Source: Amoebophrya sp. A120
Lineage: Eukaryota > Protista > Dinoflagellata
Reading direction: 5' to 3'
DNA length: 64,000 bases
Assembly: GCA_905178155.1 (NCBI GenBank)
Contig: CAJINV010000019.1
Span: forward strand, 1,038,913 to 1,102,912
Shown here: positions 4,925 through 43,900 of the stretch, piece after piece
Position numbering within the stretch: the first letter of the stretch is position 1
How the letters are laid out: each line of letters starts with the position of its first letter
Made by a program: the position numbers and the translations under genes
The notes under the pieces: model-generated
Databases searched by the model: none
The model's input: the letters and a program-made list of their open reading frames with translations, nothing else
What the model was told of the DNA's origin: nothing

Positions 4925-5568
4925 CTCAAACCAAAACCCGCGATACTTCCTGCTCCTCCCGCAACACCGCTGACACCGCGTCCCGGACCTGCTTTGGCGG
5001 CCGGTCGCTGATGCTCATGGAACTTCTCTTCGTGCAGACATTGTGCAATGAAACCCCCAATGCGTCTTCCAAAGCGGAATCGGCTAGGGAATCCGTATCA
5101 AGTGCGAAAATGTCTGCGTTTGGAAGAATGCAACTTGTTTGTTATGCTGAATCTTAAGCACAAGCATGCAAAAATTTGTGTTGCATGATTACCAAAAGAT
5201 GTCCACTTTTGACCAGTTCGACAGGGAGTTTCTCATGCAGGATAGGCAGGATAGACAGCTCACAGCATTTGTCATGCTAGGTGCTGCATTCCAGGCCTCA
5301 TGGGTCATGGAAAAACTGCATCACAAATCTTGCATTCTGCCAGACCCAGACATTTTTGCATTTGATAGTCCGTAATTCTTCTCGATTTGCTCAAGAAGTC
5401 CGAGTTTCTCGTTGGGCTCGGGTGAAACGAGCGGGAAACGGAGTCGCGTAACGGGTCTGGGTTCTGCTGTGCTTGATTGATGTCGAGATTTTGCTCGTTC
5501 AGTTGTCCGAATTGCTGCTGGAAAGACTGCCGGGCCTCCTTCTCAATGCCGGCTGTGAAATTGAACAT
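4925..5568 (-). CDS. coding exons of unknown function, possibly the 5' part of the CLU-domain gene
   Basis: ORF MFNFTAGIEK...RRITD continues in frame as SLADSALEDALG after removing the 5096-5367 element and one DR. Confidence 0.5.
5096..5367. mobile_element. introner family A (272 bp), inverted relative to 2722-2990
   Basis: A-type TIR; DR ATCCG/GTCCG. Confidence 0.92.
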
Positions 5569-17181: not shown

Positions 17182-17925
17182 CTTTATTTCAGTCGGCCGG
17201 GGGTTTTCGCTCGGATATTTATCTTTGACACAGACGAGACCGCTTTTCGATTCAGCAGAAATGAAATTATACGCAAGGATCGCGCTTCTCTGTCGTGTGC
17301 GAAAAGTTCTGTTTTCGCAACTGCCCAAAACAAACCTTTAGCTGGGAGAATAAAAAGGCACTGGACTCCACTGAACCCTATTTTCCAAATCGCGCTCACA
17401 CAGCTACGTACCTTGGATTTCGCCAGGGCAAGAGAACAACGGACGCCAACGAGGAGAAGGCCGACAAGATAACTAAGCAGAGCGACCTGGAGGTGCATCC
17501 TAGCTGGAAGCCATGTTGTAGTAGAAATGTCGTGTGTTACTTCCAATTTCAAAATTGTTCTTGTTGCAGATGACTCTGTCACAATTTATTCCAAACAAAA
17601 TTTTCTCGGAAACTGCTCGAGATAGACGAAATTCAATTGATCAATGAATGTCAATGTAGTTAGAAGGCAGAAACGCTGGTATTGTACACATTGTAAAATT
17701 GTCGAATGTGACTGTATGTGAGTAACTCCAAGATTTGAGTATAAGTGTCGTGTCGTAATTCCAAATTCCAATGACCTCGACAAAGAGGCATCAATAGTAC
17801 TTCATCAGTTTTAATTTACAGTTATCTGAAAGCGAAGCGTATCAATCTAATTACGGCAATTCCGATGTCCAATCAATTTTCTGCCAATCATGATGTCTTC
17901 GAATGTCGAAACCTAAACACCTGAC

Positions 17926-20900
17926 CTACACCATCATGTCCTCCTCCGCTACCTCCAGGTCGACCCACACGGGCAGCGCAACCGAATTCGACGGCTTGTA
18001 ATCGATGCTGTTTACGCCGAGCGTGTTTGGGTTGCGCAATTTCAAAGCGCCGTAGAGTGCCTGGTACGCGGCACTTCTCTCGGACTTTTGTTCTGCTCCT
18101 TTGTTGAACTTGTTGTTTTTAGTACTGCTCTTGAACAAGTCCTCTTTGTCCGCACCGGTCGAAGAACTGCTCGCGTCGCCGTTCCTTCTCCGCTTACTAA
18201 TCCACTTTTTCAGGAGCCACAACACCACCGCACCCGCTCCGCAGCCGAACACGCAGGCAGCGGTAGCTCGGTGGGAAAGGAGGGCTTCGTCGGCGGCTGG
18301 AAAGTTTGGTTTTGGAAAAGTGTAACGGTATGACGGTCGCTCACACTTTTTGTTTGATACATATCAATCAATTTTTGAAAACTAAAGTGGTGGCTCATTT
18401 ACATTTTGCCCATCAACACAAACACATGCCAAGAACCCTCTATATCCTGAGGAAAAACGTACCCAAACCAGAGTCAGGATGGGGATTTTGCAACACAAAC
18501 CTAGGAGCTTTGTGAATCACGCATGACAAGTTGCACTCTGCAGTGTAGTGCAGGTTAGCAAGTGCAGCCGCATCACAGATTCATCTGCTCATCCTGTTCA
18601 CAGCATCACAAATTCCAAAACACGATTGGAAATGGCTCTCATGGGGATGCGCATTACAAGTCTTCCTGTCTTTGCAAATCTGCATTACAACTCTGGTGTG
18701 GGTACGTTTTTACTCAGGATACTCTACCTTGGTGCCTCATCACGTGCCGCACCCGACTGTCTTCCTCCGCTATCGCAAACAAATCAGCAATCGGAATTTT
18801 CTGCGACGTAGCTGCCCCGATGCTACTTCTTCCGTTGAGCAGCAACAAATCCGCCGCGTCGGACCGCTCTCCTTCCGCGGGCGAAATGTGCTTCAGCAGC
18901 GAGGAATCGGGCAGTCCATAAATCGCCCCCTCGCCCTTATTGATCTGTCCATCGGAGGTAGACCCCGAAGTTCCGGAGGGAGTGGAGGATGTTGTTACCC
19001 CGCCATCAGGAACCTCGCTGTTCAGATCTGAAGACGAGGAGGACATAGAGGAACCACTACTACCACCGGACGCTGCATAATTGCTACCCATCTCCACACT
19101 CCCGTCAGCGTTCACTTCCACGTAGTCTTTTTTCTGCTGCAGAAACGCCGAAATGTTCTCGTACCAGGACGATGAGGAACTTGCTACACTCGTCGATGTT
19201 GAACCTCCTTTCTCCAGAAACATTCCGCAACACGACCCACTTGTATCCGCCACGGTAGCGGGTCCCTGGCTTGATTGGAAAACCGCCGGGTCCGACGGGC
19301 GGATGATCTGCAGTTTTAGTTTTGATTTGTTTAAGTACGATTGCTCAAATCATGATGTTAATTCCGATGGTCGCTAATATCGTTCTACATTCTTATTCAT
19401 TGTCGTTCAAAAGTGAGAACATCGCATGATAAAGCATTTCGCTTCTTTTTTCCCCGCATCTTCACACACTGCAATTTCGTAATCTATACCCCCGCCTCCT
19501 TCAGGTACTCCCTATTGACCAAGGGCCACCGTTCCGGGGTTACCCGCACCCAATTGTCACTGACTCGATTTTATCGCCTGTAAATATTTCTAGGTCTGGA
19601 AAAATGGAACTTCTGTTGCTTGTCTGGCACTCCTACAAAATCTGTATTGCGTGACGGACAAGGACGCAGCTACATAACATTTGTCATGCAAAAACGCAGT
19701 TTGTACCGTGCGTACTGCGCATGAGAGAGCTTCCTAAAAACTTTATCTTTAACTTGTCATGCTTGGCTGCATTAGAGGTTCTGCGAGCATGCAAAGTTTC
19801 GCATCACAAGTTTCCAGACCCAAACATATCTGCATTTGATACATTTTCCGTGGTCCATCTCTCCCCACTGTACACCCGCACCTCGTCCGGTGGAATGCCG
19901 GGACTTATGTTTTGCGGGCGGCAGTCACGCCCGATGGAGACCCGGATATTGGTACACTGAAACCAGAACTGGTTGTACCGGGTGAAAACGACCATTTCGT
20001 TCTCCAATTGCAGCGGGGATTGCCCACCGGGGGAGAAGAACAACGCGTCCAAGGTCGGTTCGTTCCACTGCCACTTTTGCGTCAACGGGTTCGGGTTGCC
20101 GTTCAGCGCGTCATCCCGCAGTCGCCCCGTCGTGACCAAATACTTCCGGTAGTTTTCGTACTGGGCGAGGGTGAGCCGCGTGCTTTGATCCGGAAAAATC
20201 GCGTTCTTGTGCATTTGCTCCCACGCGAACTGCAGAATGTTCGAATTCGCCCACTGATGCGAATCGGTCGTAGTTTCTATCCTGTGTAAAAACGTACCCA
20301 CCCCAGAGTTGTCATGCAAATCTGCATGCTGAAAATGTTTCTCATGCGGAGCCCGATGAGAAGCGCTTTCCAGTCGTGTTTTGGAATTTGTCATGCTCCA
20401 ATCAGCATGATAAAATAGATCTGTGATGCTGCCGAGCTAGCTCAAACAGCACTACACTACGAGTCCAAATTTGTCATGCAAAACACCCAAAACTTGTGGA
20501 TTTGTCTAGCCGAGTCCCCATCTTGACTATGGGGTGGGGACGTTTTTACATAGGATAGTTTCCACGTTGTGCCGCAGTGCGAGGACGTTGGGCCCCTTCT
20601 TGATCGGATCCGCAAATTCCGGAGAGTAGGTCAGGTGCAGTTCGACTGGGGTGCCCTGATCGTGGGTTTTTTTGACAACATGGAATTGTATCTAGTGATG
20701 GAAGTTTTGGTCATGGCATTCGCTTTCGCATTGCTGGCTAGAAATGACCAAACTAGACGTCGATGCCTTATCGGCATCACAAATTGATATGTGCCTCGTT
20801 GTCGTTCTGAGCTACATCCCATTTAAATACCCGGAAGCTATCTTGCAGGTCCTGGAAGACATCGCCGCGACTTGAAATGTTGATCACAGTCGTCCGCTGT

Positions 20901-21178
20901 CGCTGCTCTGGGAGGTTGTCCGGAACATTAACAGTTTTGATGGATGACGTCGAAGACGCAGTTGTAGTTCCAGCTTTCTCTTCTTTTCCAACTTTGCTCG
21001 TGTTCTCCTGCGCCTGCTTCTCTTCTTCTTGCACAAGTTGCTTTACTTTCTGCTGCTGTTTCTGTTTTTTTACTCGAGTCTGTTGCTCCTCCAATCTTCT
21101 CTCCTGTGCAGTGGATTCCTTTTTCTGGCGCTGTGCCTCCAGTTGCTCCACCTTTTGCTCTTCACTTTCGCGAACCAT
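17926..21178 (-). CDS. multi-exon hypothetical protein with a probable C-terminal single transmembrane helix
   Basis: Consecutive minus-strand ORFs split by 3 introners and other introns. Last exon has ACVFGCGAGAVVLWLL followed by KKWISKRRR. Confidence 0.55.
18443..18721. mobile_element. introner family F (279 bp)
   Basis: TIR TATCCTGAG.AAAAACGTACCCA.ACCAGAGT; DR CTCTA/CTCTA. Confidence 0.95.
19572..19841. mobile_element. introner family A, diverged (270 bp)
   Basis: Degenerate A-type TIR; DR GATTT/CATTT. Confidence 0.85.
20278..20557. mobile_element. introner family F (280 bp)
   Basis: F-type TIR; DR GTTTC/GTTTC. Confidence 0.95.
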
Positions 21179-22114
21179 CTTGGAATTATATATGGAAGAT
21201 CGTTAAAAAGGAAGCTTCAGAAGAAGAACCAATCTGCTTGTTGCAAGATTAAGGTTGTTTCTACGAAACTGAAACTCCGCAGGCAAATGCCGAAGACTCG
21301 GCCCAGAACTTCTTAATTGTGGCGCACAACGGGCTCCTTGGTACTCTGATGTAGCAGTCGTGTTGCGTTACTTCACGGACGACAAACACCGCAAAAAAAA
21401 AGCTAGGCGATATGGATATTGATCCAGTATGCGTATCACAAGTTTACCTTAGAGGAAGAGTTACGGAAGTCCAAATGGAAATAAACCTCATTGTAAATTG
21501 TAAGTAGAGCATAAGATGAACTCACGAAAGCGATTGTTTGAGATCTTTTTTACGCGTTGTTCACCGACTTTGTGAAACCGGTAGTACAACAACGATAACT
21601 TGAAGACCGATTGCACGATCACGACACCACGAGTGTTAACACGAATCCCGTATCAGAATGTGGCGAATAAAACGACGATCTAGAACAAGTAGAACCACGA
21701 GTAAGGGGAGAACCGACGAGATCCTTTTCCTGGTAGACAGATGAAACCCACGACGAAAATTTCGACATTTCGATCTTTCTTCGACAGAAGCGCAGAGGAG
21801 CACGACCCGGGTAGTTATGAGCTATTTGAAGCTAGCGTAGCCGATCTAGTAGACCGTGAGAAATTACAACGAAATAAAGCAAAAATCGATTTAATGACGG
21901 AACATCGTTACGCCCCCAGCTGCGGCGCAGAGAAAAAAACTAGCCTTGAAACTGTCCCAGACCAGCACGAGAAGTTCTTTTCCGATACATCAAGTGCCAC
22001 ACGGTACAGCAGCTTTAGTGTTCTCATACATTGGAAAGGGTAAGCTGAACTCTTACTGATGTATTCCTGTTTCTTTCCAGCTCGATGTACTCAGCGAGTT
22101 GCACTTCAAATCCA

Positions 22115-25100
22115 TCACAACTTTACTCCGGCAAACAGTTCTTTATCCAGCTTCCGCTCGCGCCAGTACTCTCCGAAGGTATCGTTAACCATCCGGAGCT
22201 CTTCCTGCAGAATGTGCACGTCTGACCGGCTGACAATTACGTCGCCGTCAGTGCCCTCGCGGGCAAGCTGGATAGCGCCCAGAGCTGTTTGAGTTTTTGG
22301 GAAAGAAAATACCGATTTCTGATCCATACAGAATTCATCGCTTTTGTTACACACAGTACAAAGAGGCATTCACTGCTTACCTGCTGACACACGCTTGCTG
22401 GGAAAACAGACAAAAACCAAAAGCGGTCAAATTAAGAGAAAAACCAATAATCCAACATCATATGTACTGTCTTTCAACTCCTCGTTGTCGTTCTTCGCTC
22501 GTGCCAGGTCCATTTCGAGATCGTCTGTTCGTTCGCGCTATGAACTGCAAAAGTATCGTAGTAGTAGTAATTGCAATACAAATTAGCTCAGCATGACAAA
22601 TGGAATTTGTCATGCTGTTTTGCCTTTGGATGGAGATTTGTAATGCATAACTGCGATTACTACGAGTACGATACTTTTGCACAGGATACTCGCAGTTTTA
22701 CCAGTTCCCTTTTCAGCTGGTCCGCCTATGGATTGCAAAAATGTCTGGGTCTCCTGGAAGAGTCCGAACTTGTGATGCGCATCTCAGAACACAGAAAAAT
22801 CTGTCATGCATAGGTAGCAAAAGCTGCCCGCTTTCTGTCACCAAGAAAATGGGGGATTTGTCATGCGGATTCGGCATTGCGGAAGCTTCTCGATGAAACC
22901 TGTGGTGCTAGAGCTTCCATTTCAGACCTTCTGTGTCAGTGTCATGCAAAAACAGCATGAGTCTTCCAGACCCAGACATTTTTGGAGTTGATACCGCCTC
23001 CGCGCGCGCGATCTCCTGTTCCGCCTCCTTTTCCTTGGCCGGGTCTTCCTCCGCCTTTTGCAGGCACATCTCCACGATCAGTAACTCCAGCTGCGGCTTC
23101 GTAAACTCCTTCAACCGGGCGTGCAGATGCCGGGCCGCTTTATCGGACCCACGCTTGGAAAACTCGTGGAGGAAGGTTTTCTCAAATCCGCCCTCCGAAT
23201 AGACAAAATCCAACACCCGCTCCACCTCGTACGGTTGCACACCAGAAGAACGCTCTTGGTTAGATTTCTCTATGGAACGATCATCATCAGGATCTGGCGT
23301 GGTGGGAAGATCCTGCTGTCCAACATCCTCGTCGTCAAAGCCCTCGAGCTGTGGGTCCTCTTCAGACTGCGCTTCCTCCTCCTCCTCGTCTATTCTCGCC
23401 TCGCCCTCAGCTTTTTTCTTTCGCGATCTGGGTGTTAATTTACTGCTCGGCTTGAGTAGATGATGGCTCTTGTAATTATTGCCACCCCCGCGGCCAATGA
23501 TCCCCTTATTTGCTCTTGCTCCTCTGTTCTGGGTAATTCCTGATAACTTATTCATCTTGCTGGTCAACCCTTTTGAGGCTCCTGTGGCCGCTGACAACAA
23601 ACTATTGTTTCTCGCCCCCTCTGCCACCTCACTCTCTAGCGACGTTTCAATGTTCTGGACCTGTTGCAGCTGCTCTACCACCGCTGTCATACAGTCCGCG
23701 ATCGTGATTCCGTGCTGGTGCACGCCCTCGTTCACCGCCGCAATTTGGTCCTCCAATCGCGGGATTTGTTCCGTCGCGATCAAATTCACTTTGTCGTCTA
23801 AGTGACTCACCTGCGATGCGAGGGTGGATACTTGCTGGAGCTGCTGGGAGGTAGTGGGTGGGGTTGTCGGTACTGTTGTGGCCACTTTTTCTTTTACACC
23901 TCCAGATGTTGCACCAGCTACTGGAATCGATGACATTGTATTCTCTTTGTCCAACACCGCAGACGCTGCTAGTGCCGACGGCAAGGCGTTCCCCCCACTG
24001 ACGATTGCTACAGCGCTGGTGGAATCGGCTTTCGTTCCTTCTGTTGCCTTTTTCCCCCGACCCATGTCTAGTGGCGCTTTTCTTCGCGGGGTACTCACGG
24101 ATCTTTGACTTTCCTTTTCCTGTCCGCCCTTTATCACCAAATTGTTCTTGTTGTCCAGCTTGTTTGCCATCATGTAGTTCGGCTTTATCTTATTGTTACT
24201 TCTCTCCCCTTCCGGCTGCATAATTTTATTCGCGTTTGTTCGCCCTGTAGAAGTTGTGCCCGAGTTCGCCCCAGCTGTGATCTCGACGCCAAAATTGACC
24301 GCTTCCCCCTCCGCGGCCACCGGGCGTCGTGTCGGGGGCGGGATGTCCTCCTCTGCGTGATCCGACAAGTCGAGCCCCGACAGAAATTCGTGCAAATGCG
24401 TGAATCGCGGAGCAATGTCATCGTCGTCCTCAATGGAGTTTATTTCATCATGGTCATCCATGTAGTAGTTGCTGCCATTCTCAACATCTGCTAGTCCTTC
24501 TCCCTCTCCAGCAACATTATAGACCAAAGACGCTCCCATCGGGCGACCTTTAACACCTCCGAAGTCGATACTCCCGCGCATGGCGGACGGTGCTGCCTCA
24601 TCCCCTAGAGAGAGCATGGACGAAACAGACCCAATTGCGAAGTTCAGCGACGCGCGGCCGGCCTCTGCCAACTGCTTCGCCGCTTCCACGGGACGCGACG
24701 CCCCGAATCCGTAGGAACCGCGGAAGGCGGGCTGCCGGTTGTCGCTTTCTTCTTCATCAGGTAGTCGTTCTTCTTGATCAGCGGACGTAAATATGGTCGT
24801 GCTAGGTCTGATAACCGGTTGTTGTAAACCACCTGAAGATGCAACAATTTTTCCCACATTATTATTTTTATCAAATCTGCTCCTGTCCCACTGGAGAACT
24901 TCCCCCTCGCCATGATCCTCGTTGATCTTTTGCGACTCGCCGAATCGCCGCCGCACGTTGGCGAAGGGGTTATTCTCGTCGGAGCTATCGAACCCGCGCG
25001 TTATTTCGTTGTCTTCTTCTTCTTCTTCTGCTGCTGCTCTGGGGAATTCTTCCTCACTTGTGTAGTCCCCGGGAACCGAGAGCTTCTTGTTTTCACTTGT

Positions 25101-26224
25101 CACAAAATTTCCCTCATGTAGTTGTCCATCGTCTTCACTATCGTGCATCGGGTCCCAGTCGGCACCGCGTTCGAAGGCTGTTTGTGTGTCGTAAACCGCA
25201 GGCTTTGACTTCCCTGGCGCATAGTTCTTCTCGCCTTTCTGGTCTTCAAAGGAAGTGTTCACCCTGGTGTATTGTTCCACCGTTTTCATCTTTGTAAAAG
25301 CGGAGAGTTTGTTCTTTGCGGATTTAAGATTTGATGTCCTCTGCTGCCCTGGTTCTGGCGAAGGAGTAGGAGAAACAGGTGCTGCTGCGACTTGATTGGA
25401 GGCGATATTTTCATTTGCTTCTGGCACAAAAATTTCATCCGTTTCCATCAATTCGCCGTGTTTTTCTTGTAGTTGTCTTAGTCTCTTCTTCGAGTTGTTT
25501 TTCGGTGAGTCCGCCAAAGATTTTCTTCCGCCAGTTGCACTTGGTGCTTCTTGGACCATATTATCCGCGGCACCATCTTGTTCCGGATCAACGCCAACAG
25601 TCGCACGTATTTTCCGCGTCCGTCGCACCGACCGGGTTTTCAGCACCAGGGACTTTTTCTTTTTCTTCTTGGTGCTCGGTAGATCACCCCCATCGCCTGA
25701 AGATGTCAGTGTTGTGCTGTCTGCAGCAACAGTGTTCTTGACCGGTGGAGCAATGCTGTCATCCTCCTCAGGACGACGCGAGCCGGAAGCGACTTCTATC
25801 GTAGGGAAAAGTCACCCCTCCCCATATCGAAAAGGAACGCCTCTGAGAATTTGTGATGCTGATTTGTGACTAGAAATCGGGTTTGTCTTGCAAGAAATCA
25901 ACGACAGGGGGCTCCGCCCGATTATGCAGGCGGTTTGTAATGCTGTTGGTCCTACAGCATAGACGTTCCTCATGCTAAGTGCCTAGGCCAAAGCCTCTCA
26001 CTCTATATTGGCATGATATGGGCCTGCAGTCCTCTACTGCAAGACAAATCTGATTTCTGTACGCAAATCCAGCATCACAAATTATGTTTTCGATATGGGG
26101 AGGGGGCATTTTTCCTTTTGATAACTTCAGTGTCCAGAAGCGGCAAGGGCCCGGGATTGGGATTCGTCGTTTTTCGCGCGGACGAATCGCGACGCGTCGT
26201 CGTCTTTGCTTTCGATGTCGCCAT
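22115..26224 (-). CDS. large acidic, low-complexity protein with a C-terminal coiled coil
   Basis: ATG at 26224 (MATSKAK) joins the 912-aa ORF across element 25797-26123. Spliced tail reads EA|DQLKRELVKLR|ERTDDLEMDL. Last exon tentative. Confidence 0.75.
22539..22688. mobile_element. introner family C (150 bp)
   Basis: C-type TIR; DR CGCGC/CTCGC. Confidence 0.9.
22727..22993. mobile_element. introner family A (267 bp)
   Basis: A-type TIR; DR CCGCC/CCGCC. Confidence 0.93.
25797..26123. mobile_element. introner family B (327 bp)
   Basis: B-type TIR; DR ACTTC/ACTTC. Confidence 0.95.
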
Positions 26225-27273
26225 GAGAGAAGGAAAGAATCGTCCAACAGGGGCACTAAAACTAAAAACTGATATATAATCTAGTAATCGATGGGACGTA
26301 GATGCTCAACCAGCTCCATCCTACAATATTAGTGGGGAAACAAAGCGTGAAAGACCAGCAGCATGCAAATCAGAAATAGATGGGGCAGCAAACAAAACTG
26401 TCTTGCTCCTCGTCGTACTTTGCGGACCGCAATAGGCGGTGTCTCTCGTGTAGAAACAGTGCTGGAGGGTACTTAAAATGTTTGAGGGTAACTATATCTA
26501 GTTAGAGCAGGAAAGGAAAGCACCTGGAATAATCAAGGTAGGAAACGCCCGCGAAGATTGATGATAGTACACGACGTCCAAGCTCGAGCAAAAATTGCCG
26601 AAACCAAAACCACACGACAACCGAAACGCTTTGTGTACGAGGACATGTTAACCAACAAAGGACGACAGTAAAGAGAACGAAGCAGGTTGATGAAACAACC
26701 GATGAAACAAGTTCTATCGTACGAGTAGACATCATCACGATGCTGCGCGGACCGAAAAGCTAACGCAAACGCAACGACGGACCGAAAAGCCAAAGCATAT
26801 ACGCAGATTGCATTTGGCTGCACGACTGGACAACCCACTTGTCTGCATGTGTGCAGATGTTGTGAACGACGGAAAATGGACGAAGACGAGACAGATAAGG
26901 CAGTCGTGAATACGGGTTCATTGTTCTCTACGACAGACGACAAGCTGCGCCGTCTGAGAAATCACGAACATAAACTCAAAAGTGGAACAGCAGCCGTAGT
27001 AACGTCAAGACGTGGCCACTTTCAACAAACTACGCTCTTTGAAGATGTGCGCTGCTGACGTGGCAGTACTAGGATAACCTGCTTGAGCTTGTACTTACAT
27101 CAAATAGGTATGAATCGTGAAGGTTTTGTTCTGTAGAGCTAGAGGTCGCTGTCGATTTCAATAAAAATCGCTGTCGCTTATGTCCACGGCCTCGGCCATG
27201 ATGCTCAACATTATTCATGATGAAATGTCACGAGGTGACAGACACTCGGGCAACCAGTGTCGCAAAAAACCGC

Positions 27274-30200
27274 TCATGCCCCACCCACCGCGGAGCACGG
27301 CAATGCGGTTGATGAGACCAAAGAGCTGTTCTTTCCCAGGTCGACTCGCAGTCTTTTCGTCGGACTGTCACTCAATACTGAAGCTGCTCCTGCTGCGATA
27401 TCATCTTCTTCTTCTTCTACCATGATCGACGCGCTAGTTTTTCTGTCGCTGTTCTGTAAGCAGTCCGTACTCGGCGAAGCGTCAACTTCTACCGCAACAT
27501 CGGCTTTCGTAGTTCTTCTCGACGTTATTATATGATCCGTGGTTGCTGTAATTATCCCCACCCCTAAACATTCCAGCACGTTTCTCGCGATTTTCGCCAC
27601 CAAAGGCGGGCACACGGCGTTTCCGCACTGGTAATAGAAGCGGTTCGCGTTTCGCTGGTTTTCCACGCAAAACGTCTCTGGAAAACCCTGCAGCCGTGCG
27701 CATTCCCGCAGCGTGAAAAAGCGCGGCGGGGGGAGATTTTCAACACTTTCATTTTCGTGCGTTCCGTCTTCATCCCTTGGATACGGCACGAACTCGGACT
27801 GCACCAAGTAGCCAGATTTGTACCGCGCCGTCAGTGTGCGTGCGAGGTAGTCCAGCTCCACGATGCGCTTTTTTGGTTTTTTCGAACTGGTCCACGATCG
27901 GTGGCTTTTCACCTTCTCCCACTGAGTGTCGGTTAAAAGGACGCTTTTCAACTTTTCGGGGTTTTGTTCCAAGGCGGTATCAGGCTCCAAGATGTCGCGG
28001 ACGGTGACAGGTCTGATTTGACGTAGCGAGGCCGGTGAGTTTGACGAAAGTGATGTTTTTTCCATTGGCGGAGAGAGATCAGATTGGTTTTCTGTTCCAG
28101 CATTGTGGCTTTTTGAATTTGCGGCTCGCCTCCAATCTTGGTCCCCGCAAGAGGTCCTCGTGGAAGAGGTGTCTACTCTCATGTCACTGTGGCTGCAGCT
28201 TGGCACGTGTTTCTCGCCCCCGTCGATGTGTTGGCGTTCCTGTGGTGGCTCGGGCCAGTGGAAATCGAACTCGGGAGAAATATTCTGGTCCAGCTCCAGT
28301 CTTGCTTCAGGCTCAGTTCTTTCACAAGAAGGAGATGCCATTCCACCCCCCCTTCTCATCAAAAACCCGACGATATACAGCCGATCCCGGTTTTGCGGAA
28401 CAACATCCGGACAGACTGCGTGGCTGTTCAGGACCTTGTGGTGCACCTCGTATCCGCAGTCTTGTTCTAATAACTGTTTCACCGTTTCAAACACCTTCCC
28501 GTCCTCCAGTTCCAACAACCCGGGGACGTTTTCTAATAGCAAGGCTCGCGGCTTGAGGCTTTTACTGTGTTTCAGCAGTCTGACGATCTCGAAAAACAGC
28601 TGTCCCGGGTTTGCTAGCTCGTTTTTTAGACCTTTGCGGCTGCTGCCGGTATCAAAGTGAGAAAAACTAGATTTATGTCGCCCCTGGTGCCTCAATCGCG
28701 TTCGTACCTACTAGTGTGTTGAGTACTAGAAATTTAAATGAAACACGGGCAGAGGGAGTAGATGTGGAGAGAAACTAGAACTACTACTACATTTCAATTT
28801 GCATGACAATCGATTTCGCGCTGTTGATTTAAGCATAAATATGTTGCAATTGAAGCTGAAGCGACATGATATCACTATTTTCTGCATTATCATACTTGGC
28901 TTTTGAAAAAGACTGGCAGGGGAATCCGGCACAGAGGAGGTCGAGTTGGCCAGTAAGGGGGCAAGCGGGTAACTTCTCTAGCGTCGTGATGTCGGTATTG
29001 AAGCCAAACAGGGGCTTTCCGTGATTGACTTCGTACAAATATCTTGCCTCCGCGTCGCATTCCGAGGCCAATAGACAGGTCCCGCGCAGGTGGCAGAAAT
29101 TTCCCGACTTCAGGCCGCAGGAAAACCCCCCGATACCCGCGAACAGGTCGACAAACGTGAACTGGGGCAGATTTTCTGCGGTTTTTGTCGGGTGGACAGC
29201 GACACCGGCGTCTGGCTGCAGTTGCAGGTTAGAGACCTGTAGTTCTTCCCCCGCAGTACTGCCATAACTTGTGGACATCGCTGGGCTAACACCTGGGAAA
29301 ATCTCGTTCTGATCTTCGACCGCATCCCCGTCGCAGCCACCTGCTGCGGCCGAGTTGTTCTTCAGTTCATCTGCGAAACGTGTCGACGCAGTAGCATAAT
29401 CCTTCAGAAGATCATGATCGACGTCAAGAACATCGAGTTCCACAAGCTTGACACAAGCTGCTAGGCTCTCGGGAAGCACGTGGTCTTTCATTTTTCCATT
29501 CCTATCTTGGCCCTTGCGAATCATGTTCTTCTTGCCCATCACGTCGAAATTCGGCTCACCACAATGATCGGCCTGCGCTGTTGGCTGCGAAACACCTTTT
29601 TCATGTTTTTCTGTGCGATGTGCTGCGCGCATCAGGCACGAGAAGAAGAAATCCCATTGCGTCCGGGTTAGGGGAACAAATTTGCAGTCTGTTATGTCTA
29701 CCGTACGAGAGGAACCACTGTGGTCCATCAGCGCGCACTCGCCGTTAGGGTCGGAACGAGATTTTGTTGATGCGGCCGGAGAGCATGGTGCGCTCCTACC
29801 TAGTGATGGACTCGTTATCTCGTCTGCTGCTTCAACTTCGTTGTCATCTCGTCCTCTGCACGCGGGCTCGCGTTGTAGGGACGAGGAACAGACCTGTTGC
29901 GTGTCTGGTCCCGTCTGGCTCGGGGATGGCTGTGCGACCTTTCGCTCACGAAATCGACAGGCCGCGATGACATGTTGGATCCCGTAGATCGCTATTTTTT
30001 CTGTCGTACTCCTAGTTGTTTCCACTCCCTCAACGGACCTGTGCCGTACTGTACTTGACGATGCCCGCCCTTCTGCGCTGTCCCTCCTGCCCCTGACATC
30101 ACTGACAGAAGTCAGCTGAGGTCGCGCTTTCTGTGACAAGCCAGCAGGACTTGTGTAGCCAGTCCTCTCTGCATCGTTGGTAGAAGCCGGGCTTATTTTT

Positions 30201-30700
30201 TCCACAAAGAAAACCTTCCTGGGCGTCCACAGTTTGCGATTTGCTTTCCTTTCAAAGTCTGTTCTAGCCCTGGAGGGTTCATCTCGTTGCTCCTCGCCGC
30301 GCAACGCGTAGTTTGCCAAACCTGCTGCACTTGCTCTACCCGCTACTTCTGCCACCTCATGATCTTGCGACAGCACACGTGCAAAGTATATTTCCTCTCC
30401 ACCAGCTGATGTCATCTGCCGGCAGCTTTCCGTGGCGACACCAGGGGCATGAAGTGTGTCCCGCTCTCCACGCGAGGAAGGGTAGTCGTCGTGTGCGCTA
30501 CCTTCATCGGCGACGGGAGGCCTCTTCCCTTTCGACGTGACGCGTCGGCCCCCAGATGGAGTGTCGAGACCTGGTGAAACTGTGCTGTCTAATCGCGCAT
30601 TTGTATTTGTGTCGTTGGTGCCACAAAAGGTCGCTTCCAGCCATTTCAGGGCTGCGGCCAACTGCCCCGGAGGAACGAGAACGCCCTGCTTGTGATTCAT
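27274..30700 (-). CDS. C5 DNA (cytosine-5)-methyltransferase with a long N-terminal extension, two exons
   Basis: Motifs in order: I DLFAGIGG, IV GFPCQSFS, VI LLENVPGL, VIII QNRDRLYIVG, IX TLRECARLQGFP, X GNAV. Confidence 0.92.
28650..28894. mobile_element. old, highly diverged introner (245 bp)
   Basis: TAT...ATA ends, residual TIR (GAAAA.TAG..ATGTCGC), DR decayed (GCCGG/CTTGG). Removing 250 nt gives FSKAGSSRKG. Confidence 0.7.
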
Positions 30701-31930
30701 AATTCTACTTCCGTGCGTGGCTCTCGTTGCCGTGATTCATGATTCACCAGATTTCTCCTTGCGTGGCTCTAGCAGCCGTAGAAGATGAAGAGCTAAGAAG
30801 CAAAGTGTATAATAGAGGCAAAAGGGTTAAACGATTTCCTCTGCACAACCAACTAATTTTCATGTCTCACACAGAATTCTTCTCCCCAGGTTTGTTCATG
30901 TTCATCAGCCTACCCGCTACGCCATACCGCGTTCCTGTTCCGCTACAAAAATCAGTCAAATTGTCTCGCTCATGTTCTTCATCTTCAGGGAACAACTTTA
31001 ATTTTTGTCTTTGACATCAGATCTTTTTCTTCATCTCGCTGCGATCTCGCTTTTCGAGTACGTAGTAGATCTGACCTGCACTTTTTGTTTTTCGTTTTCC
31101 AACGGCAACGCCGAGAGACTAAAGTATCTACCCTAGCTAGCACACACGAGGACCTCGTTTAGAGCCATTTTCACTGATCATCTGATCCATATTCACGATT
31201 TCAGCTGCGTACGGGAACGCACAAAACAATTTTCTCGTTGCTACACACACGCGCACTTCCTTGTGCGGGCACCAGGAGGTGGGACAAGAAGGCATTCGGT
31301 TTCATTGTTCGAAGTGTAAATGTTTCCCTTACGTTGGCAGCCCCAGCTGCTCCTGGTGTCTTTGTTTATTGTTTTTCCATGGTGCTTTTGATATTGCCCT
31401 CAGGTCAACTCTCTTCGAACTCGTACTTTTTCCGCAGTAACAAGTTCGTTTTCCTTGCGATTGACACCATTGCCCACAGCAAAAGCAATGTGATCACGCG
31501 CCGTATTAAAGCAGGAAAGACCGCGGTCTTGTATTTTGTGCAGCAGATGAAGCTGTAGCCTGCCGATGTTCGTTGCATCTTCAAGAACCTGCGTACTGGG
31601 TGGTAGTCATAGCAGTAGTAGAAAACAAAGAGCTTGAAATATAACTACGTAAGAAACTCGCAAGGGAACACTACGTCACCACCTAGCCTGTGATTAAAGA
31701 TAAGCTCGCTGAGTGGTTGTGCGATTCTTTTCTCGTCTTTGAGCACGCCAGTTCGGGTATTAGTGAATAGCCTTGTCCTACGAACAGTTTCTTGACACTG
31801 TCTGATAGCATCGTCCCTAACGTCCTACCGGGTAGTGGTAGTATGCAGCGATGTTAAAGTGGACACAAAACTTATTCTTTCATGAAATGAAGAATCATCC
31901 AAGCGACGAGAGAACCTTATCCACCAATTC

Positions 31931-34900: not shown

Positions 34901-37900
34901 CATGCAAGAATGACCAGCAAAACAATAAACAAAGTCGCGTCATCCTTTCCTTTCCACAGCGCCAGACCCATACAAATTTCTTCCACTCCATATCTTCACT
35001 CGTTTCCGAAACTCCTTCTCTTCCTTGGACCGAACCCCGTCGGTTTTGCGAAAATTCGGAATTTCGTCTGGGATGTAATCGGCACCGTGCTTTTCCACGG
35101 CTTCAATCATGGTTTCGGCTTCGATGCGGCTCCACCAAAAGGCCATGACGAAATCCTGCGTACTCCAGGTGTACTCGTCTTTGAATACGTCGCAAGTCTT
35201 CAAGGAGCTGGTGTTCGCAAACGGCGCCAGAACCACGTTGAAAACCCAGCTGACCCCCTTCGGTTTGTGCACAATCTCGTCCCGGTTCTTGTCGTAGGTG
35301 ATCAAGCCCAGGGCGTGCAGACCGCGGTACAGCAGTTTTTTCACGTCGTTTACCTCCTTTTTCGAGATCATGTCCGTCTTTCGCAGCCGCTGGTGGTCCT
35401 TGATCAGTGCGTTTACAGCTTCCTGCATCTTCGTCACCAGTTCGATGGAAATGTTGTAGCACTTGTAGATCTCCCAATCGATGTCATCCTTCCTATACCG
35501 CTTCTCGTACGCGGAACGAAAGTTCGTGAGGGACATACTGTGAGGAAAAATCCCCCCTCCCCATATCGAAAAGGTACGTCGCAGAAAATTTGCAATGCTG
35601 ATTTGCGACCACAAATCATCTCTGTCTTGCAAGAAGGCAACTCCACAAGCTCCGCCGCATTATGCAGGCGGTTTGTGATACTGTTTAGCCTACAGCGCAG
35701 ACGTTTCTCATGCTAAGCGACTACGCCAAAACCTCTCCCCTCAGGCTTAACGTGGGCCTGCAGTCCTCGTCAGCAAGACAAATCTAATTTGTGGAGGACG
35801 CAAATCCAGCATCACACACTTCGTTTCGATATGGGGAGGGGGGATTTTTCATTTTGATACGACATGCGCATCCGCGGCCCACAGGCAAGGTCGGTGAAGT
35901 ACTCGTAGGCGCGGCGGCACTATGGATTGCAAAAATGACTGGGTCTGGAAGAATGCAGGAGTTTGTCATGCAGATTTTGCATAACCCGTGAGGTCTGTGA
36001 TGCATGCCCTAGCATCAGAGATTTTGCGAGGGCTTTCTGATGCTCATACCGCATGAGAAATGCCCTCTCCGCGTAGTACAAAATACACCTCTTTCGCTGT
36101 TCATGCAATACAGATTTTATGTAGAGTCCAGAGGTAGCATCACAAGTTGCATCCTTCCAGACCCAGACATTTTTGCATTTGATAGGCACTTGCCGGAGGT
36201 GTTGGCCCCGCGCTGGAAGGCCTTGCGGATGTTCTTCGGCAAGGCATCCATGTCCAATTTCGCCGTCTTATCAAATGCAAAAATGTCTGGGTCTGGAAGA
36301 ATTGGAACTTGTCATGCGAATTCTGGAATAGGCAAAAATTTGTATTGCATAAAGACCAGAACCTTCCGACTTCTTGCTACGCAAATACGAAATTTCTCAT
36401 GCGGGATAGACATCAGGAGGCCTACGCAAAACCTGTAATGCTTTTGCGTGCATTAGAGACCAGTTGCGTGTTGATCCAGAAGATGCATGACAAACTCCTG
36501 CAATCTTCCAGACCCAGACATTTTTACATTCCATACGTCTTGCTGATCTCCGATTCCGGGTCCAACAGGGCCTGCACGATGGTCTATTCTGAGTAAAAAC
36601 GTCCCCACCCCAGAGTTGTCATGCAAATCTGCATGCCAAAAAAGTTTCTCATGCGAAGCCACATGAGAAGCTTTTTCTAGTCGTGTTTTGGGATTTGTGA
36701 TGCTATGCATAGCATGGCATGCTATATCTGTGATGCTGCCGAACTAGCTAAACAGCATTACACTACGAGGACAATTTTGTCATGCGAAACAACCAAAGTT
36801 GGCTGATTTGTCTAGCAGATTTTCCATCTTGACTCTGGTATGGGGACGTTTTTACTCAGGATATGGTCGAGGAAATGTTCAAGCTTTGGAGACGCGTCTT
36901 TGCCGGCCGCGGTTGCTTCCACAAGGGAACGGTGGCGGGGACAAGTTCTTGACCGGATGTTGATAGGTCGTCCATTTTTCGTCTCTTGTTCGTCTGTTTC
37001 ACTGGAACGATGGCAAGCTGGTCGCTCGTCTCTACTTTGCTCCTGCCTTGTTTGGTGGATTTGCTATTCTTATCCTTCTTTACTACAGAGGAAGAACAGC
37101 TGCTGCTGCTGCTAGAGGACTGCTTTTTCGAAGTACAACCAAGGTCATTCTTAATCTTCTTTTTCGTCGTCTTGTAAGTAGAGTAACCGCCGCTGGCTTC
37201 TTCGTAGTAATTGTTCCACCAATCTTGTTCATCGTGATAATCTTCGTATTGGTTTACTTCGTCTTCGCTTTCATCTTCGCTTTTATCCTCTTTCCCGACG
37301 AAGTATTCGCCCGCGAATTTGTCTTCGAAATAATCTTCTTCGTCTTCCTTGTACTCGTTCTTGTTCATCTTTTTGCTCTATCGAATGCAAATATGTCTGG
37401 GTCTGGAAGAGTCGGAGTTTGTCATGCACATTTTGCATGACCCGGGAGGTCTGTGATGCAGGTCCTAGCATCACACATTTTATGTTGAGGGCTTCTTGAT
37501 GCTTATCACGCATGACAAATGCCCTCTCCGCGTGCCAAGAACTGGACCCCTCTTGCTGCTCATGCAACACAGATACTTTTGGAATCCACAGACAGCATTA
37601 CAAGTTTCACCCTTCCAGACCCAGACATTTTTGCATTTGATATGCTCTTCGATACAAGTTTTACGTCCGCTTTGGAACTGGAAGAACCTCCTGCTGTGGT
37701 AGTCTTGCCCTTACTACTCGAATGAGCATTGTTGAATGCTTTGATAGGTTCCGCTAGCTTCCAGAATTTTTCGATGGTTGCTTTCTCGACAGGTTCCGAT
37801 AGCTTAAACCTGAATTTTATTTCTTTGATAGGTTCCGCTAGGTCACAACGAGAAGCAGTTTTCTTGTTCTTTTTGTTTTCTTTGCTCGACACCGCGGACT

Positions 37901-40900
37901 TCGATTTCGACCTCGAAGCTTCGAAGCCATTCAGCAACCGCCGACACTCATCCAAGTCGTAAGGGTTGGGTAGAGGGGGAACTCCGGGCGGTAGTTCTTT
38001 CATCATTTTGTTCCGGTGCTCTACTTTTATTTGTGGAACCTCGATCTCGTCGTCCTCGTCCTCCACATCTTCATGATCCCCGACGTCGTATAAAATGCAA
38101 AAGTGTCTGGGTCTGGAAACTTGTAATGCTGGGTGGCGTCTCATGATGAGGCCACAAATGCTGGCTCAGCATGACAAGTTTCTGAGCTTCTAGGTGTTGC
38201 CTATTCTGCATGACAAACTGCGTTTCTGCATCACAGGAAAATGGAGCGTGTGGGTAACGTGCATGACAGATTTAAGTAGAGTCATGCCAGACAAGCATAA
38301 CAAACATGCATTCTTCCAGACCCAGACACTTTTGCACTTGATACGTCATCACTGTCCAAAATGTCGTCAAAGTCCTCCAAGACCTCCACACCCTCCTCGT
38401 CTTCAAAGTCGCTCAGCTGGAAATTGTTCTTCTTGTTGTCCTTCTTATCTCGACCACGTCGTCCAGCTTTTTGCCATTGTTCTTCTTCTTCTTCTTGCCC
38501 CTGTAGAACCTCCGCCTGTTCTACTTCTAGTTGCTCATCATCGTCTTCTTCTCTGTCTTCGTCCGCGATTTCTACTACAGGATTCTTGCCGCGGCCCTTT
38601 AGCTTCTTCTTGTTGTTTTTCTGGCCCTCTTGTTGTTCCGGATGAACAACAAAATCGTCCTCAATAGGCAAGATCTTCGTTCCCGGATTGCAGTCGTCCT
38701 CGAGGGCCAAAACCGACATGTTCTTCTTCTTGTTATTTGTGAGTCCCTTCATTTCGGCGATTTGCTGTTCCGTCCGCTTCTTCAGCCGCTCAGCCTGCTG
38801 CGCGGGGTTCAGCTTCCCCTCACGGATACGGTTGAAATCCCGGGCCAGCGCCATCTCCTCCACGTTCCGCGCTTCGCCGGTACGACAGTTCGACGTCATG
38901 CGCTTCCAGGAGGAGCTGAAGGCGTATGGAATGCAAGTATGTCTGGGTCTTCTGGAAGATTGCCAGGCTTGCCATGCATGTTTTGCATGACCCAGGGTGC
39001 CTCTAATGCATCACCTAGCATAACAGATTTTTAGAGGGTTTCCTGATGCCTATTTCGCATGAGAAATGGCGGCCCCTCCGTGACATAGCACAAACTGGCG
39101 AGGCAATACAGATGTTTCTAGAATCCAAGGACAGCATCACAAGCTGGATCCTTCCAGACATCCAGGAATACTTGCATTTGATAAAGCGTCCCTCGTGACG
39201 AAAACCGCGTCTTCGTCCTTGACTGCGGTGAGAATCTGCGGCTTGAAGTATTACAATGAAAAATGCCCCCACCCCAGAACTACCTGGCAGCATTTGTATT
39301 GCAAAGCTTTCCAATGGAAACACTCTCTGTCTTGCATCTATCAGCATCACAAATTTTCCATGCTGAATAGCTCAAATTTGTGTTGCAAAGGGGCCCAACA
39401 GCAGCCGGATCTGTTATGCAAAAGATACCTTGCTGCGCACCTAGATTCTGCATCAGAATAAAGGGTCGTAGTCCTTTCATGCAAGACAAAAAGATTGCAT
39501 TTGGAAACTTCGCATGAGAAAGAACTTTAGCAAATTCCGCGATCGTGGGGGCATTTTTTATTGTAATATGATGGTGATGCCCGGCCCGGTCGCGCCCTGA
39601 AATTGGCACCCCGTGGTGCGGAGCGACACCAGGGCCGCGAGCTCTTCGCTGGTCGGCTTCTATCAAACTGAAAAATGCCACCACCCTCGAACTTGGGGAC
39701 ATTTGTATTGCAAGCCTTTCCACATGAAACACTCGCCCTCTTGCATCTATCAGCGTCACAGAATAATTCCAATCGTGAATAGCAAAAATTTGCGTTGCAA
39801 AAGATCCCAGTAAGAGCAGCGCTTGTCATGCAAGCGATGCGATACACGCCTAAGTAGACTCTGCATCAGAAAGATTCATACTCCTTTCATGCATGGCAAA
39901 AAGTTTTCATTTGGAAACTTCGCATCACAAATTTTTGCAAATTTGGGGGTGGGGGCATTTTTCACTTTGATAGCTTCCGCGTCGCTTTCTTCGTGGGACA
40001 GAGCAGCCCCTCGGGATCCAGACCCTTATGGATTGCAAAAGTGTCTGGGTCTGGAAGAGTGTAAGCTTGTCATGCAGGTTTTCCATGACCCATGATATCT
40101 GGAATGCGGGACCTAGTATGACAGAGTGTGTGAGGTCTCTGCCATGCCTATCCTGCATGAGAAACTGCCTCCCAACTTGGTCGAAAGTGGACAGCTTTTG
40201 GCACTCATGCAACACAGATTTTTGCATTATTCGGATGTAGCATGACAAGTTGTAATCTTCCAGACCCAGACATTTTTGCAATCCATAACCCTTCTCTTCG
40301 CACATTTGCTGGTACTCCATCTCCCTGTCCCGCTTCTTCATCCAGTGATCCATCAAAGAGCGGTCCCGCTGGTCCCGCCTCCGCGCGTCGTCCTTCAGTT
40401 CGCGCGCGCGCACGGCAAACGCCTTCTCGTCTTCCGCACTCCCGGACCCGTACCGAATCGGGTCCTCCAAAAAGGCCTCCCAAAGCAGCTTGGTCCGCTT
40501 CAGCGGCATGCGGTGCTTCACGACCCAGGCCTGGAACACCTTGGGCTCCCGATGCACCGCGCTGAAGAGCGTCAGCAACTTCTGCATCGACGGGTTCGTG
40601 CCCGCTTCCTCCTCTTCCTCGTAGTCATCCAGGCCCTTGAGAATCTTTTTCCGCTTCTTGTCAACCACAAGCTGGTGCCCCGGCTCTTCTTGTTCGCCCT
40701 CGTCATGATCTCCCTCCTGCTCTTCACTCGAAGTAGAGACTTCATCACCTCCGCGCAGCACGACATCAAGATGGCCACTACTTGCTGCTGCCATACGTTT
40801 ATTTTTCTTCCTGTCCGCGATGGCCGCTTCCTGCTGCTTTTGTTTGTTTTGCTCGATTCGCATTTTCTCGATGTACTCAGCCCGCCAGGCGGCTAGTTCC

Positions 40901-43900
40901 GTGTCCCAGGTGGTCAGCCATTGCTTGTACTCTTTGTTGGGAATCAGGTACTTTCCTTTCCCCATCTTCGGGTCCTGTGTCAGCAGCACATTCTTCGCGA
41001 CGGACAGCATCCAGTAGAGCTGCTTCCGAAACTCGTGAATGAACTTCTTCGTTTCCGGGGAAAAGCTGAAGCCCGTTTTCTTTAGGTCCTTCGTTTGCTC
41101 GTGGTAAACCACAAGCTTTTCCTCGTAGGCTTGTTTCATGACGACGTAGGTCGCGCCCGGGTAGACACCGAGAACCTCGTAGAAGTTGCAGAAATTTCGC
41201 CCCGTGATCAGCCTCTTCGTCTTCCACATCGAACCGCTCAGGAACTCGGTGCAAAACTGCTGCTATCAAATGCAAATATATTTGGGTCTGGAAACTTGTA
41301 ATGCTGCGCTGGGAATAGTAAATGCTCTGTAATGCACAGCCAAGCATGAGAAATATCTGCGCTTCTTTGTGTTGCGTTTTTCGCATGACAAACTGCGTTT
41401 TTGCATGACAAGCAAATAAAGGGTCTCTTCTTGGACACGCATCACAAATTTTTTTGTCATGCCAGACAAGCATGACAACTCTCGCAATCTTCCAGACCCA
41501 GACATTTTTGCATTTGATAGCTGCACGGAGTCTGCGATCGTGAACTCGCCCTTGGACCCGGTCGTGTAGTGCTCCTCGTCCAGTTTGCGCTTCTTTCGCA
41601 AATACTATGGATTGCAAATATATATGTCTGGGTCTGGAAACTTGTAATGCTGAATGGTCATGATTGACTCTGCCAGTAATTGCAGTGCAGCATGACAAAT
41701 GTTTCAAACGCTTTCTCATGATGCGCAGAACGCATTACAAACTGCGCTTTTGCATGACGAATTAAAGTGTGGCGCGTCATTTGCTGCTTATGCGATACAG
41801 ATTTTTTAGGAATGCGAAGCATGCAATACAGGTTCAACCTTCCAGACCCAGACATGTTTGCGGTCGATAAATACATTTGGTCGTCAAAAGCGTCGTCGTC
41901 GACCGGAATTAGCACGTTGAGCTGATCTTCACCCAATGGACCCTCCTGGTGGTCCTTCTCCACGTGGTCTTCATCTGCGTCGGTATTTGTTCTTGTATCT
42001 CGTCGTGATAGTTGTACCTCCTGCTGCTGCACACTACCTTTATTTCCTTTCGAAGTCCACCCGGGTGGGTTATTTTTGTCTTGCTCCAGTTGTTTTGTTC
42101 TTCCGCTTCCCTGCTGTTTATTGCCCTTCTTCATCAATAAAGCTACGGAAGCTGAAGAAGCTGAGCTGCTACTCCCGCCGGCGCAAGATTTTTGCTGTTT
42201 TGATCCGCGGCCCAGGTCTTGCAAGAGAGCCGCGGTCGCAGAAGAAGTGTTCATCTTGGCGAAAGAGGAAGATGAGGCGAGGAAATCTTTACCATCTCGC
42301 TTCTCGTCTTTGGTTTTTGTTTTGTTGTTGTTTTTTCCAAAAATTTTTGAGCCAATACTTTTTTCATCAATAGCAAAGCCGGTACTAGTACCAAACATGG
42401 AACTACTATCTTCGTCCAACGGCAGCAGATTTTCCGTCACGAAACCCTCCGCCTCGTCGGCGTCAAAGAGATCGGCTTTTAGCAGATTTTTTGGTTGCTC
42501 GCTACTGTCACCAGCAGCACCCTGGTAGTACTCGTAGTTTTTCCGCTTTTCGGAGGATGAGGAACTGCTGGCACTACTGCTTTTGCTGTCGCTCTTCTTC
42601 CAATCCTTATTGTGCCGCTTATTTTGTTTAGTTTGGGCTCCTTTGCCTTGTTTTATATCCTCTTTGTCGTTCTTCTTTTCCACCACTTTGGTTTGCTTTG
42701 TACTTTTGCTTTGCACACGCGACAGCATCAGGACATACCGGTCCGGGTCGCTGACCATCACATTGTTTTTTTTTGGAGCTGCTCTTTTCGGTTTCGGCTT
42801 CGGTTTCGCTGGCGCGCGATAGTCATCGTACTTATCGTGCGGGGGAACGGAAGTCGGCTCTTCACCATACACCTTGTCCACATGAAATATTGTGAGGAAA
42901 AATCCCCCCTCCCCATTCTGAAACGGGATGCTTGTGTTGCTGATTTGTGACCACAAGTCAGCTCTGTCTTGCAAGAAGGCAACTCCACAAGCTCCGCAGC
43001 ATTGCGCAGGCGGTTTGTGTTGCTGATGGGCCTACAGCGCAGACGTTTCCCATGCTAGACGCCTAGGCCAAAACCTCCCTACTTAGGCTTAGTATGGGCC
43101 TGCATTCCTCTCCAGGAAGACAAATCTGATTTGTGTACGCAAATCCTGCACCAGAAACGTCGTTTTGATATGGGGAGGCGGGATTTTTCCTTTTGATATG
43201 AAACCAGAATTCTTCGCTGATGCTGCTTATCCTGAGTAAAAACGTACCCACACCAGAGTTGTAATGCAGATTTGCAAAGACCGGAAGACTTGTAATGCGC
43301 ATCCCCATGAGAGCCATTTCCAATCGTGTTTTGGAATGTGTGATGCTGTGAACAGGATGAGCAGATGAATCTGTGATGCGGCTGCACTTGCTAACCTGCA
43401 TTACGCTGCAGCGTGCAGCTTGTCATGCGTGACTCACAAAACTCCTAGGTTTGTGTTGCAAAATCCCCATCCTGACTCTGGTGTGGGTACGTTTTTACTC
43501 AGGATACTGCTAAGATCTTGTTCATTCCCGGCGTCACCTGCACCTCCGAGAGCCTTCTGCAGCTCGAGGTCATACCTGTTTCTTGATTCTATTTTTTTAG
43601 AAGATCCATCGTCATTCAGAGACTTCTAACTCAAAAAGTGCGGTAAATAAGTAAGTACTTAAGTGAAATTTCAAAAACCAAAAGAACGCGGCAAATTTTT
43701 TTTATCAGAATTTCTCATGCCGAAGTCCCTGCATCAATCTGACACTTCTCTCGACGTAGTGAGCCCATGTATTAGCACCACGACACAACGAACTATACTT
43801 TCGCTTCTTCTCCGCATCCAGCAGAATGTGCTTGCCGGCGTTTACCAACTGGAAAGCGCGCCGATTTTTTTCCTCGTTGATATCCGCGCCCTTATACTCG

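Follow-up and report, generated by a model that had tools for sequence, protein, structure and literature searches.

The window analysed here is a stretch of 64,000 nucleotides from Amoebophrya sp. A120 (contig CAJINV010000019.1 of assembly GCA_905178155.1, positions 1,038,913 to 1,102,912 of the forward strand), and coordinates without a locus name refer to it. One of its exons is 100% identical to P0001, a protein assigned to this strain by NCBI, whose ortholog in strain A25 is P0002 (71%). The window is filled with short repeats starting with TAT and ending with ATA, of which our own detector found 43 with lengths of 145-327 bp, and which are the introner elements published for this strain (Farhat 2021, PMC7789003). 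In the passages available from that paper, the A120 introns are described as non-canonical, repeated and about 240-260 nt long, with inverted repeats of TAT, seven looser bases and AAA and with direct repeats at the borders; a hairpin is proposed and the mechanism is left open. According to the same passages, 83 of 89 spliceosomal proteins were found, but neither U1 nor a minor spliceosome, which raises the question of how A120, with no U1 snRNA detected, gets rid of introns that lack GT-AG and number in the tens of thousands (PMC7789003). A preliminary description of the window had singled out two near-identical copies, 18443-18721 and 43228-43506, as introns in opposite directions and had concluded that excision depends on the symmetric stem rather than on directional signals. 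The elements are thus a known system in the type strain, and while the general observation of removal in both orientations is right, the headline example is half wrong.

Counts of a genome-wide kind refer to the window and 141 loci of one related assembly, in which 340 further elements were found. These loci were fetched with the terminal inverted repeat (TIR) pattern of one family from 18 of 64 scanned parts and are therefore biased to that family. Among the TAT..ATA pairs of the window with at least 17 of 25 bases paired, 31 of 46 are flanked by an exact 5-bp duplication and 40 of 46 by one with at most one mismatch, as opposed to 1 of 46 at 4 bp and none of 46 at 6 bp. In the related loci, the exact 5-bp duplication occurs in 203 of 256 unbiased TIR pairs and a 6-bp duplication in none of the 256; over both datasets, exact duplications of 4 or 6 bp number 0-2 each, and a target site duplication (TSD) of 3, 4 or 6 bp was rejected. 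The inverted repeats are 25-32 bp long and show the published pattern of TAT, seven looser bases and a run of A (positions 11-13 are A in 208-226 of 237 copies), which is missing from a few families, and the published direct repeats are found again as the 5-bp duplications. In the available text of the A120 paper, the inverted repeats measure 8-20 nt and the direct repeats 3-5 nt, and the position of the cut is left open (PMC7789003), whereas here the repeats are longer, the duplication is uniformly 5 bp and the removed length is the element plus five bases.

Inverted ends, a constant TSD, scattered copies and empty orthologous sites are the features of miniature inverted-repeat transposable elements (MITEs) and other non-autonomous DNA transposons. 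All six element sites of the window that are covered by the related locus L011, which is about 90% identical to the window, are empty there, and the related assembly carries its own elements at other sites, in L011 at 4001-4263 and near 7317; the empty sites suggest a cut-and-paste origin. Longer copies (481-972 nt) hold non-coding cargo, and no autonomous transposase partner was found in the window or the 141 related loci. Viral contigs gave no match to two TIR patterns, and Rfam gave none. If retained, the element would bring an in-frame stop in 226 of 237 copies. Several copies deviate from the common form. The element at L051:2865-3147 has an 8-bp instead of a 5-bp direct repeat within a long open frame, where removal with eight bases gives the same frame as with five. 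The element-like copy at 60434-60755 within a MORN-repeat gene lacks a flush 5-bp duplication, and its flanking frames require an offset cut. At 55996-56108, a fragment with one end has tandem GCATGACAA motifs, the other end being missing, and at 54168-54478 part of an array of about 20-bp palindromic units falsely mimics an element.

Self-comparison bears out the pair highlighted in the preliminary description in so far as both copies are 279 bp long, 96.4% identical (10 differences) and reversed, with both host genes on the minus strand. That both are introns in their own right is not borne out. The copy at 18443..18721 (plus strand, TAT..ATA, duplication TAGAG in transcript sense) is nested in a canonical GT-AG intron of 431 nt (18297..18727, minus strand), at a distance of 6 nt from its donor, and the joint 18296-18728 is present in the contigs of runs X1, X2 and X4. 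The contigs of runs X1-X4, all of one sample, were aligned to 17400-21500; their RNA nature is a guess, backed by their skipping of GT-AG introns, and run X3 hardly covers this host gene. No element-only join is listed among the RNA contig joints, though contigs drop rare forms and the element may still be removed before the outer intron. When spliced by the RNA joints, the host gene has an open frame of 642 codons, and removal of the element and five bases alone leads to a stop 15 codons on. The flanks of the element have no coding-like score. In L011 the donor is the same and the element is missing, and together with the RNA joint this identifies the copy as a late insertion in an ordinary intron. 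It is uninformative on orientation, and the pair is therefore no proof of the orientation claim. Between two introns of this host gene, the orientation flips at L011:7100-7468 near a contig end, which could be an inversion or a mis-assembly.

The copy at 43228..43506 (minus strand, 32-bp perfect TIR, duplication AGCAG) is, judged by frame and coding likeness, very probably a stand-alone intron removed as element plus five nucleotides. Its terminal fold has a z-score of -9.8, and the flanks are coding-like on both sides (scores 4.0 and 3.9). In a model from the ATG at 44399 via a canonical GT-AG intron predicted from frame and donor and acceptor likeness (43576..43798, minus strand), upstream of the exon preceding the element, the frame is kept only by removal of the element with two, five or eight bases. 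Some doubt is left because a single GT-AG intron from 43798 to 43223 would keep the same phase. The predicted acceptor at 43575 is directly followed by GTATG, which might act as a recursive splice site, in which case exon and element would be skipped together. The host gene (34943..44399, minus strand) contains 15 elements, among them the opposite-facing 35921/36269 and 37379/43910, and its frame from 34943 to 43625 extends over 1566 codons after removal of 14 elements with five bases each. This restored frame includes both orientations, also in the adjacent opposite elements 35921-36184 and 36269-36535 (35921..36535, minus strand). Near its start the gene has a weak J-domain match (DnaJ, E=0.021, below the cut-off), and a PDB search with the J-domain exon gave no matches. 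The J-domain motif presumably reads on across the element junctions, the weak match itself lying in the flanking exons. Exons from the host genes of 18443 and 43228 gave no matches in protein searches at 322-2000 and 563-2000 aa, which are weak blanks, and a search of representative proteins gave four distant matches that were not used. A better partner than 18443 for the orientation argument may be L076:3022-3306, which is 91% identical to 43228 in the opposite sense and lies beside 80 and 48 open codons; its claim comes from the frame.

Removal in both orientations is instead carried by other copies. In the RNA contigs, the element intron at 19572..19841 (minus strand) is removed with 275 nt, that is 270+5, and the one at 20278..20557 (minus strand), which has the orientation of 43228 (74%), with 285 nt, that is 280+5; neither joint has a GT-AG reading. 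A longer series is found in the PH-CLU-eIF3_p135-TPR gene encoding P0001 (772..8361, minus strand, running past the window start), which has 12 element introns and 7 GT-AG introns. All 12 correspond to element plus five, and none offers a GT/GC-AG option. Two of them are the elements at 2722..2990 in the CLU domain (274 = 269+5) and 5096..5367 (277 = 272+5), which the preliminary description had also named as an opposite-facing pair. They are 79.7% identical, with a core identity of 77% reversed and 50% forward, and both junctions are contiguous in the A25 ortholog P0002. The annotated protein and the ortholog thus confirm them as stand-alone opposite-facing introns in one gene. The clan of 18443 and 43228 is represented here by 6495..6802 (minus strand) in the orientation of 18443 (68%), seen in the annotated protein in a region poorly conserved in A25, and by 7460..7744 (minus strand) in the orientation of 43228, seen in both the annotated protein and the A25 ortholog. 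Even the degenerate element at 1359..1522 (minus strand), with a gapped, weak terminal stem, is removed exactly with five bases.

For the remaining pair of the preliminary description, 22727-22993 and 58056-58306 (85.4% identical), opposite orientation and minus-strand hosts hold, and the intron status is less even. The element at 22727..22993 lies in a restored frame of 1039 codons, and its site is empty and continuous in L011, while 58056..58306, which borders a partial MORN-repeat gene duplication, is only a plausible intron, needing a micro-exon of about 12 nt between flanks that are not called coding. The duplication (57658-58049 and 60802-61190, 85% identical) involves neighbouring MORN-repeat genes, and its second copy represents the empty site for 58056. 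Length seems to be no apparent block to removal, to judge from a 972-nt element with non-coding cargo in the gene of the largest subunit of RNA polymerase II (L057:4001-4972), where removal of element plus five restores the frame after an exon matching RPB1. We take the RPB1 motif to read across this junction, the search support lying in the flanking exon. A second element of the same locus (L057:5517-5756) is nested just past a canonical donor, as is 18443. In the raw RNA runs X9 and X10, matches were to element ends only (85 and 183 reads, almost all partial).

Our codon model assigned a strand to 237 of 344 evaluable elements, correctly in 32 of 32 cases in the window and in agreement with the majority strand of the locus in 205 of 207. 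Calls from the frame alone are fallible, as the first frames across 18443 (227 codons) and 5096 had to be corrected by RNA and by P0001. Of the pairs with at least 85% identity, which are not independent of each other, 81 of 161 face in opposite directions relative to the transcript, and 20 of 26 families contain both orientations. A strict subset of 102 elements gave opposite pairs in 3 of 11, 9 of 25 and 38 of 82 cases at 90, 85 and 80% identity, and in 19 of 40 nearest-neighbour pairs. The orientation bias that the preliminary description proposed to count genome-wide is therefore not detected in the window and the 141 related loci, as far as frames suggest, and the elements are likely to be cut out equally well in either orientation. 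Orientation-free intron status accordingly stands on these other copies rather than on the pair first put forward.

The earlier statement that canonical splice sites are lacking holds, with a GT/GC-AG register in 13 of 237 copies. None of the duplication positions shows a base bias in these copies, so that canonical sites are not borrowed from the duplication. Removal takes the element and one copy of the 5-bp duplication, which is seen for two copies in the RNA contigs and for 12 in the annotated protein. More widely, element plus five yields coding-like frames in 176 of 343 cases, compared with 54-57 for three, four, six or seven additional bases, a background which means that up to a third of the element-plus-five frame calls may be false. 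Given this constant length and the lack of an orientation or target bias, the machine must count off five bases irrespective of their sequence.

The conclusion that excision depends on the stem and not on directional signals does not follow, because mirror-image ends present the same signals both ways. Compared with the reverse-complemented 3' end, the 5' end shows no difference at positions 4-26 (all p>0.09), and every end signal is therefore offered in both orientations. Among them are the donor-like TAT, a run of T at about -14 to -11 and the subterminal motif GCAT[GCT]AC, which, at a distance of 15-70 nt from the 3' end, is present in sense in 122 of 237 copies, in antisense in 132 and in both in 80, with 2.9 expected (in the window, 98 vs 2), and which may be a transposase site. 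Orientation independence rules out only signals in the asymmetric core and tells little about the machine. Insertion in both directions is predicted by mirror-image ends, so that the orientation finding itself is no surprise.

Of the two mechanisms suggested in the preliminary description, a structure-guided pathway or a modified spliceosome, the latter fits better, with neither established. We lean slightly towards a relaxed U2-type spliceosome for which the leading end, in either orientation, would provide the 5' signal, with the hairpin setting a 3' cut free of AG. The 5' cut would lie one base before TAT, where N-TAT would mimic the donor G-TA(T/C/G) of the genome; the T-run and the GCAT[GCT]AC motif would come from the far end, and the two ends would be drawn together by the hairpin, which would also define the 3' cut without the need of an AG. 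Orientation independence would then result from the mirror symmetry of the ends. The removal of the weak-stem copy at 1359-1522 supports this reading. The two cuts lie outside the stem by five bases in total, and their position can be narrowed down with mismatched duplications. In the mRNA of 19572, the last base of the downstream duplication copy is kept, which is the ancestral base, and the same retention is seen at 4036 by the ortholog, which places the 5' cut one nucleotide or more before TAT. In each of the four polarised mismatches (19572, 4036, 22539 and 58056), the base that changed lies within what a one-base register would make intronic, as is expected by chance in 1 of 16 cases, with the qualification that 22539 is synonymous and 58056 doubtful. 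The synonymous excess among the duplication mismatches, about half of 47, is indistinguishable from a fixed cut. All 12 canonical donors of the window are GTA (8 GTAT, 2 GTAC and 2 GTAG), and with a cut one base before TAT the element starts like a donor minus its G. The canonical introns of the window are A-rich, not pyrimidine-rich, before AG, and their donors have no G at +5, which would fit a U1 that is altered or missing.

The idea of a donor mimic preceded the count of damaged ends, in which the terminal triplets of 18 exon-called copies are damaged at positions 1, 2 and 3 in 5, 3 and 3 cases at the 3' end and in 0, 1 and 6 cases at the 5' end. The count omits locus-edge rows, non-exonic rows, intact triplets and L051:2865, which has an intact TAT and was mis-called. 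Five of the six position-3 damages at the 5' end yield TAC, which is itself a donor variant. Positions 1-2 are damaged once at the 5' end and eight times at the 3' end (Fisher p=0.05), and the 5' share of 1 in 18 compares with one third expected (p=0.007). This is suggestive of a directional 5' signal, but it is a lead and not a result. Copies whose duplications are mismatched or whose ends are damaged can in this way define the cut register, and tell whether the signal is directional, with genome and RNA data that already exist.

Several observations weigh against the spliceosomal reading. Overall damage does not differ significantly between 5' and 3' ends (7 vs 11, p=0.48), nor does it with the homology method alone (2 vs 6, p=0.29), and one exon-called copy (L023:5233) is damaged at the second base. 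TAT may be conserved only for transposition. The register is bounded to 1-4 nt, the upper bound coming from the doubtful 58056. An enrichment of G before TAT was rejected (67 of 237, similar to neighbouring positions), and AG is enriched at no 3' register of the 237 copies, so that the spliceosome would have to forgo both canonical dinucleotides. Near the 3' end, a generic TRAC branch motif shows no enrichment, with 114 occurrences against 99.6 expected, and for the chemistry of splicing the evidence consists of motifs, with lariat, branch point and factor not seen. If the removal is spliceosomal, this spliceosome has given up both GU and AG.

A tentative alternative is a separate structure-guided machine for which the terminal hairpin would be the recognition signal, with two cuts at fixed but unequal distances from it that sum to five bases. 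It would suit the long terminal stems, which fold strongly in both orientations (z -9.8 and -5.3), the lack of a sequence preference in the duplication and of a GT/AG register, and the report that U1 was not found in A120 (PMC7789003); from Euglena, available passages describe a comparable case whose code has been tested and whose products are circular (PMC12501133, PMC11282704). Selection on RNA pairing, however, is not visible. There is no excess of G.U over A.C (223 vs 232), sense and antisense duplexes are equally strong (sense stronger in 116 vs 114), and positions 4-10 are paired in only about 76% of cases. Exonic copies pair no better than non-exonic ones (mean 20.7 of 25, n=147, vs 20.8, n=39; p=0.91). 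This comparison is limited by a detection that itself required pairing and by true introns among the 39, and if the copies are young, the pairing tests can show little. In addition, the terminal pairs of exon-called copies are broken from the 3' side, and the weak-stem copy is removed. We regard it as possible, though doubtful, that a second, non-spliceosomal machine convergent with that of the euglenids excises any TAT..ATA hairpin together with five flanking bases of any sequence. It would be the second eukaryotic case of structure-guided mRNA splicing, and the transposon clan would be harmless in exons either way round, even in RNA polymerase II with its 972-nt copy.

Much less probable is ordinary GT-AG splicing, with copies lying inside canonical introns or borrowing sites from the duplication. 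This is true of 18443 and of L057:5517, and 43228 could formally be skipped by the GT-AG intron 43798-43223. As a general account it is refuted by the 12 element introns of P0001, which have ortholog support, by the two non-canonical RNA joints, by the rarity of a GT/GC-AG register and by the preference for element plus five over other lengths. That the elements are lost from DNA, like the internal eliminated sequences (IESs) of ciliates, or are assembly artefacts rather than RNA introns has hardly any probability. It could appeal to the merely guessed RNA nature of runs X1-X4 and to the related assembly lacking all six copies checked. Against it, GT-AG introns are likewise skipped in the contigs of X1, X2 and X4, copies of its own lie elsewhere in the related assembly, and a contig of run X5 traverses the whole 6495 copy without difference, while others run into element ends. 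General canonical splicing and loss at the DNA level are thereby nearly excluded.

Among known systems, the nonconventional introns of euglenids share paired ends, borders that slide because of direct repeats, the lack of GT-AG and a proposed MITE origin, according to the passages available (PMC12501133, PMC11282704). Their code, N3CDG..CHGN5-6 followed by an exon starting with a purine, with circular products (PMC12501133), differs from the TAT..ATA ends of A120, and neither the CDG/CHG code nor a preference for any exon base is found in the A120 elements. In Fritillaria borealis, TIR ends are splice sites of a modified U2 spliceosome, which serves as the model for the reading we favour; according to the available accounts, the ends there are fixed as AG-AC/AG-AT and a target is preferred (10.1101/2025.08.15.670264, PMC11282704), whereas in A120 boundary dinucleotides are free and no target is preferred. 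The introners of Aureococcus, Micromonas and Polarella share TIR, TSD and exact mRNA restoration (PMC10228655, PMC9860276, in part). They carry or co-opt GT/GC and AG, unlike the A120 elements, which do neither and show no detectable bias; Huff 2016, as cited in a passage of a review, found insertion in both orientations with biases (PMC10228655). An introner of this canonical-site type was rejected for A120 on the GT/GC-AG counts in the 237 copies and in P0001. IS3EU/GingerRoot has the TA..TA termini in common with the A120 elements but, in the text available, usually 6-bp duplications (PMC10045372), which are absent here, and with no transposase found this kinship is a lead only.

Two-way removal appears not to have been quantified before in the literature searched, which comprised open-access text passages and supplements and left figures and subscription papers such as Roy 2023 outside its scope; no orientation count for A120 was found in it. 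In the passages of PMC7789003, 'orientation' is used of genes only. Gozashti et al. 2025 list 58 A120 families (PMC12130899), with no match for 'orientation' in the supplements searched, and the method of Gozashti 2022 allowed opposite-orientation copies (PMC9860276), the only Amoebophrya row found in the portion of its supplement searched being strain AT5.2. Elsewhere in the window, GC-rich stretches with many short inverted repeats and no Rfam match lie at 8790-10150, which has DNA cover but no RNA-contig cover, and at 52900-53300, and are possibly regulatory or repeat DNA. A C-5 cytosine DNA methylase (PF00145) is encoded at 27277-30736 on the minus strand in two long frames with no element inside.

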